12,506 nt of DNA. Source: a virus (taxonomy: Duplodnaviria; Heunggongvirae; Uroviricota; Caudoviricetes). Of the stretch, positions 1,460 to 4,400 are shown one piece after another. The first letter of the stretch is position 1; each line of letters begins with the position of its first letter. The stretch lies in IMG/VR virus record IMGVR_UViG_2681813454_000001; one strand, given 5' to 3'. The position numbers are program-made.

Positions 1460-4400
1460 TAATTCTGGTCAACGACCAGTTGAGCGGATTCGCGTTTAAA
1501 CTCTGCGCTGAAATTTCTTTTTTTCATTATGGCACCTGTGTTGTTCTGAGGTGAGCATATCACCTCTGTTCAGGTGGCCAAATTCAGTAAACCACTTCAA
1601 ACTTAAATGGTCAGCAGCTTTATGGATTGTTAGTTGGTGGTGGCATCATAAACGCAGCAGTATTAGCGGGGATGCTAAAAACGGCTGCGTTTGTTGTTCC
1701 TGCTGCTGGTGTCGTAGGAGGAGCTGCGAAGGCATACGAAAGCCCTGTTATACGAAATGCCTTGTTACGTCTGGCAAATACGCCAAAAGGTAGCACAGCA
1801 TATGACAGAGCGATCAGTACGGTCACACAATCGCTCACCAGAGTCGCACAGGCATCACAAAAAGAAGCTCAATAACTGGCAGCCACGGATGGCTAATTTT
1901 TATTCTTTGATCTCGTCCACAGGTAAAGAAGAGCAATGGCAAGACAGGAAACAGAGAATAGATAACCTACCTCATATGGTGCGCCAAAAAAATTAGCTAT
2001 TGATACGGGCAAAAAAGCCGAAGCGATCAGAATTGAAAGGCAAAAAATAAGCCCAGTAACATAGTTTATTAAACTCTTAAATGAGAAACGTTTTGCTTGA
2101 TTTACGGTCTCAGCGAGTGATCGCTTAACGATGGATAAAAGCAAATAGATGGCGACAGTAGCTAATGCCCCTTTCCACCAGTCTGGATATAGTTTTGCGA
2201 CAATCAGCCCAAGGAAAACCATGATGACAGACTGAGCATTCACACCAACCTCCTTAGTTTTGCGCAGGATACCAGATGATGTATAGGAGTGGGAGTAAAG
2301 TTAGTCGGTGATAGAACGGTGGTTGCATAATGATATCACGTGACGTAAACTTATTGCGCATAGCGTGTATTCAATGGATGCATAGCTATTGATAATCTCC
2401 GATAAGAAGGAGGTTTGTATGAGCAATGAGACTAATGGGATTGATGAAATGTTTAGCTTGAACGCTGCCAAAGCTGGAGTCGCAATAGGTTTGCTATTAC
2501 AGCAAGCTTCTGCGTTCAGTTGTGAGGTGGTTGTTACTGATAACGTTCAGCACGCTTACCATCAATCCTCATTCAGCAGTGAACGGGCTAATGATGAGCT
2601 TCATGAGGCGGTGTCTTCGATTAAAGAATTGTCTCGAATGCTGAAATACGCTTATCGTGTTCTTGCAAACGCTACCGATGAGAATGTAGACAATGTGTTG
2701 TCTATCATTGAACCAGAAAAGTCTCGATTGATAGAGCATCAATTGAGAGGACTTGAAGGGGCAATGAAATCGGTATTCAAAGAAGCTTCTGCTGATTTTA
2801 AAGAGATCGCAAGAGATATCTATATCGTTGTTGCTGATGCCAGATCTGCCGTAACCAACCTGAATAGTCTTATTAAACAACGCTCATGTGTTCCGGTTGT
2901 TTTTGATAGTTCCGTAGATATGGCTGGTTTGCGTGCGCTTGCTGAGCACGGGACTCGTGTGTTTCACTCTGGTAACTTCCACTGAGGTAAAACATGCAAG
3001 TAACCGTGGAATATAATCAGGATAGTTTTGACTATTTTTTCTCCCCGTTTTTGTTGAGTTTCCTGATTTAAAACAAACACTTGTAGATGATTTTATCATC
3101 TACAAGTCTACGGGAACGTTGCCCAGCTATTTTGGCAGAGACACCTCTTATCATCGACCTCCTGATATTGAAGATGCAGGCCTTATGCACCTTCATTTAG
3201 CAATTGGTGAAAATAAATTTGAGCCAATAAAAAATGGCACAGATATCAGCACACCGCAAAAGTTGCAGTGGCATAAAACATCCAATACCGCTCTCGTTTA
3301 TGCACAAAATCTTTTTGATGAGAACAGGTATTCATTGATTGCTCTTTTTCATCCTGTAGCTCACATGTCTGCTAACAATCATAATAGAATGAGAGTGTTA
3401 GCAGGGTATGCGAGAGACTTTAGAAACACTATGTTTGACTAAACCCACCGTCAGGTGGGTTTTTTATAAGGAGTAATCATGATTTACCCATCAAACAACC
3501 CACCAGTTTGCCTGATTGGATGCCAGCCTTGCAGTTTTTATGGAATTAATTATGCCATGCTCAAGAGCCTTGTTAGCATCCAAAATGGTCGAGTCTGCTA
3601 TCAGGGATGCCCACCTAATATGGGTTCCGATGTCGATATTGAACGTCTCAACGAAGCGATCAAGATCGTTATCGAGGCATTTCCCGTACTCTCTCAATCT
3701 GGCATGGTCGGCGGCTGGGGAGGCAAAGCACCATAATAGAGGATGTAACAGGAATCTTGATAATGGGTTTGCGAAACGTTCTGAGCCAGCCAGGAAAACG
3801 ATATTAGCTATGGATTCAACATTGCTTATGTTGTGAGTTCTAACGGTAACAGGGAGTGACTTAAGAAAGTTATACGCAGTAAAGCCAGCAGCAGTTTCCC
3901 CTCCCTGACTTGATATATGGATATTTAATTCAGTTGCGCCTTGAGATAATGCGGTGAGACAGTGGTTCTGAAGTTGCCCAACAGTGGCAGTGTTAACAGG
4001 GCATAAGAAATGAATTGTGTGCAGCATTATTTTTCATCCTTAGCATACATGGTCTTTAGCGTCTCAAGTAGCGCCTCTTTGAATTTATCAGCTTCTTGCT
4101 GAGCAAATGACTCAACTGACTTTGGCGACCTATCTTCATCAATCGCGGCTTGCAAAATCATGACGATCTCGGAGTTAACAGAGCGACCATTTTTTGATGC
4201 TCTGACAGCAAGAGCCTCGCGTAAAGATTCAGGGATTCTTACCGTAGTTGGAGAAATTGACACACCCTTTGCCATATAACACCTTTGGTATTCAATTTGA
4301 TAGCAAAGTGTATGCAAAAAAATTTTGACTAGATATACTCACTTTGCTATCTTTTGTATTCGAAAAGAGTTGTTTGCGTGGAGGGTAACATGGAGAAAGA

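Follow-up and report, generated by a model that had tools for sequence, protein, structure and literature searches.

The window, by which is meant the whole stretch of 12,506 nucleotides taken from the IMG/VR virus record IMGVR_UViG_2681813454_000001 (Caudoviricetes), carries a cassette of two adjacent genes, of which the first encodes a protein of 188 amino acids (here called the partner) and the second a toxin of the YafO family. The pair is an obligate and mobile two-gene module, carried as cargo (a moron) by temperate phages, and in the window the reading frame of its toxin is broken by the loss of one G at position 3047. Taken as a whole, it is probable that the module works in a manner similar to toxin-antitoxin (TA) systems of type II, and that the window has a null allele of the toxin with an orphaned, intact partner beside it.

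For the Pfam comparison the intact allele of the toxin was used, whose sequence downstream of the lesion does not differ from that of the window. It matches the profile PF13957 (YafO_toxin) with 78.9 bits, where the cut-off is 25 (E = 3.4e-22), and the match covers profile positions 3-101 of 101. BLASTP aligns the toxin with YafO of Escherichia coli K-12 at 38% identity over 120 residues (E = 7e-20), and hhalign, with a profile of the toxin against K-12 YafO, gives a probability of 99.6%; the resemblance to YafO that was proposed in an earlier note on this DNA is therefore real. The NCBIfam equivalog for K-12 YafO (NF007377) gives 79 bits, which is below its cut-off of 153; the toxin is a PF13957 member of a distinct, longer and phage-borne clade. 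Its N-terminus (MxVTVEYN...) is kept at full length in all homologues, and none of them has the shorter N-terminus, starting from 3119 on, that the note had also considered. By sequence, no solved structure is detectable for the toxin; the predicted fold is an alpha/beta fold of the RelE/HigB type, which places it in the RelE/ParE structural superfamily. Ribosome-dependent cleavage of mRNA and growth arrest are attributed to K-12 YafO by Zhang et al. 2009 and Christensen-Dalsgaard et al. 2010, as these works are cited in PMC3337138 and PMC2814082. By homology, the toxin of the cassette may likewise be a ribosome-dependent mRNA endonuclease that arrests translation.

The intact open reading frame (ORF) of the YafO family is not found in the window, where two frames share the toxin region. 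As had been described before, the frame with the YafO-like residues lacks an early start, since it is open from 3032 to the TAA at 3440-3442 and its earliest ATG, GTG or TTG is the TTG at 3119, while the ORF with a good ribosome-binding site starts from ATG 2994, crosses three homopolymer tracts (T6 at 3035-3040, C4 at 3043-3046 and T5 at 3048-3052) and ends after 25 codons at 3069-3071. When positions 2300-3500 are compared with complete E. coli genomes by megablast, 54 full-length matches are obtained, each of them 99.9% identical to the window and one base longer, and in each of these genomes the pair is annotated as 'hypothetical protein' followed by 'type II toxin-antitoxin system YafO family toxin'. 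Alignment with E. coli ATCC 11775 leaves a single difference, which is that the window has CCCCGTTTTT (3043-3052) where the reference has CCCCGGTTTTT. At 3047, where the C4 and T5 tracts flank a GG doublet, one G has thus been lost; with it restored there is a single ORF of 149 amino acids. The expectation that a single-base change in one of the tracts would give about 150 amino acids holds as far as the one-base repair is concerned, but the doublet, although it lies within 3035-3052, is outside the tracts that had been named.

The allele with a single G is private to the window. With a 91-nt probe across the site, all 54 genomes match at 98.9%, on account of the extra base, and none at 100%; searched as an exact pattern in IMG/VR, the JGI metagenomes and the GTDB representative genomes, the single-G allele has no match, while the GG allele is found on 9 IMG/VR contigs and 2 metagenome contigs. 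The intact copies come to 65 in total (54 complete genomes, 9 viral contigs and 2 metagenome contigs). A look-up of the truncated 107-residue product of the window found no record. If translation were to start at TTG 3119, the product would be without strand beta1 and helices alpha1-alpha2, and because this N-terminal beta1-alpha1-alpha2 unit is kept in all homologues, the window copy is read as a null allele.

Two further null alleles of the same gene occur in other isolates. In one of them, found on four Logan contigs (L017-L020) from four independent sequencing runs, a tract that corresponds to window positions 3227-3232 has gone from A6 to A5; in the other, on the IMG/VR contig L030, the tract that corresponds to 3035-3040 has gone from T6 to T7. 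The partner gene is identical and intact in all three toxin-null alleles, and a search of 5.8 billion proteins retrieved no truncated partner. This pattern fits a sporadic erosion of the module in which the toxin goes first. The lesion of the window lies, moreover, in an element that is visibly decaying, as seen from its insertion sequence (IS) copies and its truncated gp16 gene, both described below. Because the allele is private and the prophage is in decay, the best reading of the break at 3047 is a private null allele or a sequencing error, and not a switch.

As for the error, the source organism would in that case really have GG at 3047, and an intact toxin. Such an origin would account for an allele with no match against 65 intact copies and for a truncated product of 107 residues with no gene on record. 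The lesion is also an indel of one nucleotide at a C4-G2-T5 junction, and junctions of this type are a context of base-caller errors in long reads. The quality of the surrounding sequence points the other way. The closest relative, strain PE144, differs from the window in four respects only, namely the G deletion, a second copy of ISEc52, one mismatch and the number of repeats in neuO, and the G deletion is the only indel over 6.7 kb of otherwise identical sequence; errors are therefore not a general trait of the assembly. Other isolates, too, have real null alleles of this toxin gene, and the prophage around the cassette is truly decaying, with IS transposition that has left a target duplication. 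An error at 3047 is, on balance, rather unlikely, though well worth a check of the reads.

The earlier note had left the choice between an inactivated toxin and one that is switched by frameshifting. Inactivation stands, the frame being broken at 3047; switching does not agree with the intact copies in the 54 genomes, the 9 IMG/VR contigs and the 2 metagenome contigs. A phase-variable toxin would have its production turned on and off reversibly when short 5' tracts slip, and T6, C4 and T5 tracts are indeed present at the 5' end. In one isolate of IMG/VR the T6 tract has become T7, which is the kind of variation among isolates that the earlier note had asked about for 3035-3052, and the four sequencing runs share A5 in the A6 tract. 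The same prophage also carries a true contingency locus, neuO, and a comparison with it is instructive. The 47 perfect heptamers of the window put neuO out of frame, so that its ORF ends prematurely at 10519, whereas the PE144 gene, with 60 heptads (13 more), is intact and encodes 357 amino acids; neuO in the window is a known phase-variable contingency locus in its OFF phase. The toxin has no such long tract of variable length. Its lesion in the window lies in a GG doublet and not in a long homopolymer, and the longest tracts, T6 and A6, do not exceed six nucleotides, whereas frequent switching takes tracts that are considerably longer. The three null alleles have their lesions at three different sites, as expected from random inactivation rather than from a dedicated switch tract, and the tracts are not conserved in more distant homologues. 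All 54 complete genomes, finally, are identical over the segments 3005-3095 and 3185-3275, and so show no length variation in the tracts. A reversible switch is thus very unlikely.

Still less probable is that the window allele yields a low level of nearly wild-type toxin by leaky or programmed -1 slippage of the ribosome. The heptamer T_TTT_TTC (3035-3041) is in the correct phase of the 0 frame, 6 nt upstream of the deletion, and a -1 slip on it would give ...DYFF-LP-VFVEFP... in place of the wild-type ...DYFF-SP-VFVEFP..., with S17L as the only change. All homologues, however, have the toxin as a single ORF, which leaves no conserved frameshift, and there is no stimulatory structure 5-9 nt downstream of the heptamer. 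A programmed -1 frameshift has a conserved two-frame layout and a stimulator, and neither is found here; slippage at this site is at most incidental.

The toxin coding sequence also contains a perfect inverted repeat of 13 bp with a 3-nt loop (3079-3107; free energy -16.2 kcal/mol, z -6.5), which largely follows from the codons for VDD-F-IIY. It was considered as a frameshift stimulator, a terminator or an operator and rejected in each role: it lies 38 nt from the slippery site, and Salmonella retains only 8 of its base pairs, distant cassettes none. In contig L030 the loop of this hairpin is inverted (TTT to AAA, giving F34K), which is the signature of a hairpin-templated inversion.

The association between the partner and the toxin can be followed from either gene. 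In all contexts that were looked up (about 10), the partner lies directly upstream of a PF13957 gene for 143-150 amino acids. A scan of IMG/VR that started from the toxin gave 79 loci, 12 of which ended at a contig edge; in all the 67 that had upstream DNA, a partner-family ORF is present upstream on the same strand, 6-21 nt away apart from the contig L030. Starting from the partner instead, each of the 27 loci obtained lies on a contig with the toxin as well. The positions at which the pair is found vary between phages. It occupies the same slot between gp16 and Arc in Salmonella and other P22-like prophages, and at one further locus it lies next to Arc/Ant. In a siphophage that combines Mu-F genes with genes of the HK97 type it separates head from tail genes, and in a lambdoid phage the Q antiterminator precedes it or follows it, with the holin on the other side; in four distant partner subfamilies (18-28% identity) it is found in tail regions or by integrases.

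The two genes also diverge together, since their pairwise identities co-vary with r = 0.92 over 45 pairs. The partner changes faster than the toxin (65% against 89% identity in one example), and its ratio of nonsynonymous to synonymous substitution rates (dN/dS) lies at 0.11-0.20, that of the toxin at 0.035-0.10, values that are rough as dS is near saturation. Both genes are under purifying selection. The pair has, in short, the generic layout of a type II system, with small co-directional genes, the partner first, a short gap and joint inheritance.

This layout extends to the signals for expression. The Shine-Dalgarno sequence of the partner, AAGGAGG at 2407-2413, is separated from ATG 2419 by a 5-nt spacer, while that of the toxin overlaps the TGA stop of the partner, with 6 nt between its GAGG and ATG 2994. 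Ten divergent cassettes have the same junction, in the form TGA-GGTnnnnn-ATG/TTG/GTG or as a 4-nt overlap; the gap between the two genes ranges from -4 to +12 nt across cassettes, and the toxin frequently starts with TTG or GTG. The cassette has its own upstream region and its own terminator. Long blocks of the upstream region (2244-2418) are kept in Salmonella and other P22-like cassettes, where the coding regions are only 54-65% identical, and the promoter of the cassette presumably lies there, although a scan with the sigma-70 consensus upstream of the cassette gave no strong match. The terminator at 3441-3466 is common to the cassette and to a convergent gene for a ClpP-like protein, and a terminator of the form CCCACC..GGTGGGTTTTT is found 3' of the toxin in several distant cassettes as well. 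Rfam has no RNA family within the cassette, and an RNA antitoxin of type I or type III is accordingly not indicated.

The partner itself corresponds to the RefSeq 'hypothetical protein' WP_000064337.1, and its only family match is PHROG 8416 (phrog_8416, function unknown; E = 2e-96). Searches of Pfam, NCBIfam and PADLOC with it gave nothing but noise below threshold, a match to the coiled coil of ZorA with 14 bits was discounted, and a profile search against the sequences of the PDB returned nothing significant. The family is small, with 6 clusters at 90% identity in the set of 5.8 billion proteins and about 24 representatives at 50% identity among 1.84 billion proteins. An AlphaFold2 (AF2) model of the partner consists of helices only, with a predicted local distance difference test score (pLDDT) of 70. 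A helix (16-35) is followed by a disordered linker (36-53, pLDDT below 50), a confident bundle (54-155) and a C-terminal helix. With this model Foldseek found nothing in the PDB at E<1e-3, and fold searches gave only generic helical bundles. Conserved motifs are GLL(L/M)QQ near the N-terminus, QLRGLEGA, ARSA..LN.L..Q and a C-terminal L..LA.HGT...SG.FH, with which the protein usually ends.

The remark in the earlier note that the upstream protein does not resemble YafN was correct. Between the partner and K-12 YafN, hhalign gives a probability of 0.7%; there is no Phd/YefM match in Pfam and no match to any curated family. The upstream YafN, an antitoxin of the Phd/YefM type, that defines a YafNO-type system is thus missing from the cassette. 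The partner is most likely a new family of antitoxins.

A mechanism may be pictured as follows. The cassette would be expressed in the lysogen as a type II TA-like pair, in which a strong Shine-Dalgarno sequence lets the partner be produced before the toxin and in excess over it. Synthesis of the toxin would depend on coupled re-initiation, in many cases at a TTG or GTG, and the partner would bind the toxin and neutralise it. When set free, the toxin would cleave mRNA on the ribosome and thereby arrest translation, from which the prophage may gain addiction or a defence by abortive infection. In the window, the change from GG to G at 3047 stops translation from ATG 2994 after 25 codons, and the catalytic domain is left without a start of its own.

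Several observations weigh against this picture or against parts of it. In the partner, Pfam, NCBIfam and PADLOC find no DNA-binding domain of the helix-turn-helix (HTH), ribbon-helix-helix (RHH), AbrB or Phd kind, and in size it exceeds the toxin; neither is typical of a type II antitoxin. With the window alone, a deletion of the G looks the same as a base-calling error. Three toxin lesions against none in the partner have P about 0.09 if lesions occur in proportion to gene length, which is not decisive. What the data show is the lesion, the intact consensus, the family and fold of the toxin, the linkage, the coupling signals, the purifying selection and the pattern of erosion; toxicity, neutralisation by the partner and a biological role are inferred for this clade. 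Finally, the N-terminus of the partner resembles a signal peptide in several subfamilies, and this would put partner and toxin in different compartments.

The last point leads to a different view of the partner, in which it is no cytoplasmic antitoxin but is exported, or anchored in the membrane, by its hydrophobic N-terminal segment. The system would then span two compartments, for example with a sensor or exclusion factor on the envelope side and a RelE-fold effector in the cytoplasm, or with an antitoxin whose level is set by export. In the window the segment in question is 2449-2523 (partner residues 11-35), which in several subfamilies resembles a Sec signal peptide. All members of the partner family have an uncharged hydrophobic stretch of 17-25 residues near the N-terminus, and the n-h-c layout is complete in distant subfamilies, which have Pro and small residues at -3/-1, as in MNLSLRSCLAVVLFGGVLSVPSFSA/G and MNPFNAITFAALCGPLAQPAAMA/Q; the corresponding candidate in the window is ...AGVAIGLLLQQASA/FSC. 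The predicted order of an N-terminal helix, a disordered linker and then a helical bundle would suit such a protein, as would the position of the cassette in the slot of the superinfection-exclusion gene sieA (PMC10883804).

Other features of the same segment argue for a partner that stays in the cytoplasm. The n-region of the window partner is long and acidic (net charge -3) and thus ill suited to Sec targeting, the h-region of the 190-residue subfamily is weakly hydrophobic (Kyte-Doolittle values of 1.1-1.7 for 12-mers), and member P0039 has no plausible signal. Within subfamilies, the GLL[L/M]QQ segment is more conserved than the rest of the partner, which is unusual for a signal peptide and better explained by an interaction helix. 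Tight translational coupling and co-divergence suggest, moreover, that partner and toxin are in physical contact. An exported or anchored partner is possible but doubtful. Should the partner be exported, a prospect that we regard as unlikely without dismissing it, the classical TA model would fail in favour of something more unusual. The more specific proposal, that a partner exported by Sec or inserted in the membrane controls a cytoplasmic RelE-fold toxin outside the classical type II scheme, is unlikely. If it did hold, export could, for example, take the place of proteolysis in making the antitoxin labile, or the partner precursor could build up, altering the activity of the toxin, when Sec is blocked or the membrane potential lost in a phage infection. 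No such link has been described from the state of the envelope to a translation-arrest toxin in a defence encoded by a prophage.

Positions of the cassette parts, together with those of other features of the prophage, are collected in Table 1.

Table 1. Features of the cassette and of the surrounding prophage, in window coordinates
Feature	Position	Strand	Remarks
Divergent intergenic region upstream of the partner gene	2244..2418		Presumed promoter and partner Shine-Dalgarno sequence
Partner gene, 188 aa	2419..2985 (ATG to TGA)	+	ORF and translation; intact in the window
Coupling junction	2983..2996	+	Partner TGA (2983-2985) overlaps toxin Shine-Dalgarno sequence TGAGGT; 8-nt gap to ATG 2994
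Toxin 5' stub, 25 codons (MQVTVEYNQDSFDYFFSPFLLSFLI)	2994..3071, TAA 3069-3071	+	Codons 1-17 wild type, then 8 out of frame
Lesion site, single G at 3047 against GG in all other copies	3046..3048	+	Alignment; 1-nt deletion
Rest of the YafO-family frame, residues 18-149 of the intact protein	3032..3442	+	Out of frame with ATG 2994
Intrinsic terminator, AAACCCACC-GTCA-GGTGGGTTT and then a T run	3441..3466	+	Free energy -14.9 kcal/mol, z -4.5
sar antisense RNA, P22 immI region	4708-4774	-	Rfam RF00262, 83.9 bits
ISEc52 copy 1 (IS3 family, 1250 bp)	350-1599		Abuts the truncated gp16 ejection-protein gene
ISEc52 copy 2	6764-8013		Splits the tailspike gene; 3-bp target duplication; absent from PE144
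AAGACTC heptamer, 47 perfect copies, 5' end of the acyltransferase gene (neuO)	10135-10463		ORF from ATG 10130

A P22-like prophage is integrated at the tRNA-Arg/intS site, adjoining dsdC and torI, and the window is its right end. The prophage is CUS-3 of K1 E. coli, which carries the phase-variable neuO. Support for the identification as CUS-3 with neuO comes from PMC3046976 and PMC10883804. An immI region with sar RNA, Arc-like repressors and Ant is present, and its identity is confirmed by the match to the sar RNA family; the tailspike gene is called an endosialidase in the annotation of relatives. The two ISEc52 copies are identical and in direct orientation, and everything that belonged to the prophage to the left of the first copy is gone. 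The prophage is, in other words, a defective and decaying remnant of the CUS-3 type, and the cassette sits in its sieA slot, with the gp16 ejection-protein gene on one side and the immI region on the other (for this slot, see PMC10883804).

On either side of the cassette there are genes that differ between versions of the locus. A gene on the minus strand (1893-2243), divergent from the cassette, encodes a predicted multi-pass membrane protein of 116 amino acids. The intergenic region 2244-2418 is kept in Salmonella prophages even where this divergent gene differs, which suggests that it is a portable regulatory region. Convergent with the cassette are two overlapping minus-strand genes, 3491-4027 and 4027-4317, for an Arc/RHH protein, which also matches a FitA-like RHH antitoxin, and then a ClpP-like protease of 178 amino acids; a head protease is not something that P22-like phages are known to need. 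The ClpP-like and Arc neighbours were considered as part of the module and rejected, being absent from Salmonella and other cassettes. Because Salmonella versions of the locus lack them, they may be a separate cargo module.

Among the closest known systems is YafN-YafO of E. coli K-12, encoded in the dinB operon. The toxins are homologous and share the motifs FGRD, H-x-H-L, LVY and P-x-x-H, and the order of the genes is the same, the partner preceding the toxin and only a few nucleotides lying between them. The cassette toxin differs by 17 more amino acids at the N-terminus and by its score below the NCBI equivalog cut-off, and the cassette partner, with its 188 residues and its helices, is unrelated to the 97-residue YafN of the Phd/YefM type. 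The cassette is also phage-borne, whereas the K-12 system resides in a chromosomal SOS operon. The antitoxins of the ribosome-dependent mRNA interferases RelE, HigB, YoeB and YafQ (among them HigA, RelB, YefM and DinJ) carry HTH, RHH or Phd domains for DNA binding, in contrast to the partner. The cassette has its place, from gene 16 to immI/tailspike (PMC10883804), in common with those genes of P22-like prophages that lysogens express from the sieA slot, but it encodes a RelE-fold toxin with a partner and is found at unrelated positions in other types of phage.

The same two-gene architecture is seen in the 'YafM antitoxin / YafO toxin' of the Escherichia phages PhiR40_1 and PhiR55_1 (PV340560, PV340571), which has the same partner family. 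The partner of the window and the PhiR40_1 'YafM' are related with an hhalign probability of 99.8% (E = 7.6e-28) and a BLASTP identity of 27%. The PhiR40_1/PhiR55_1 protein belongs to another subfamily, has 179 amino acids and an N-terminus like a canonical signal peptide, and is located at a genome end by ea22/exo. A literature search found no experiment behind the 'YafM antitoxin' label, which is an annotation label only; as a characterised antitoxin 'YafM' was rejected, since the literature matches are a typing error for yefM or labels from annotation pipelines. One comparative-genomics paper lists a 'YafO/YafM' system, and RefSeq already names the toxin at the exact locus of the window. 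What had been called an undescribed module in a moron position is, then, conserved cargo in temperate phages, as proposed; it is not wholly undescribed, as RefSeq names the toxin and two phage records label the partner. YafO toxins with unknown partners have been noted before (Leplae et al. 2011, PMC3141249). In a survey of E. coli with SLING, only 8% of YafO partners were 'known' (PMC10790755), and 'toxin-only' or orphan YafO has been described in prophages (PMC10449497).

The frameshift itself is ordinary, one more case of toxin-first erosion of a TA-like module in a decaying prophage, and in annotation the window toxin is best handled as a pseudogene, or its reads inspected. What is useful here is the partner family, which is tied without exception to the phage-borne YafO clade and which is without a curated model, a solved or recognisable fold, or an experimental record. 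If the partner is an antitoxin, it adds a new family of antitoxins and would explain the 'orphan YafO toxins' of prophage surveys (e.g., PMC10449497). If its N-terminus functions in the manner of the signal peptide that it resembles, the module would fall outside the current classes of TA systems. Prophages of the host type carry neuO, which encodes the O-acetyltransferase of the K1 capsule, in extraintestinal pathogenic (ExPEC), avian pathogenic (APEC) and neonatal-meningitis lineages of E. coli. Because the cassette is found on a neuO prophage, it may affect the retention of the prophage or the phage resistance of clinically relevant strains.

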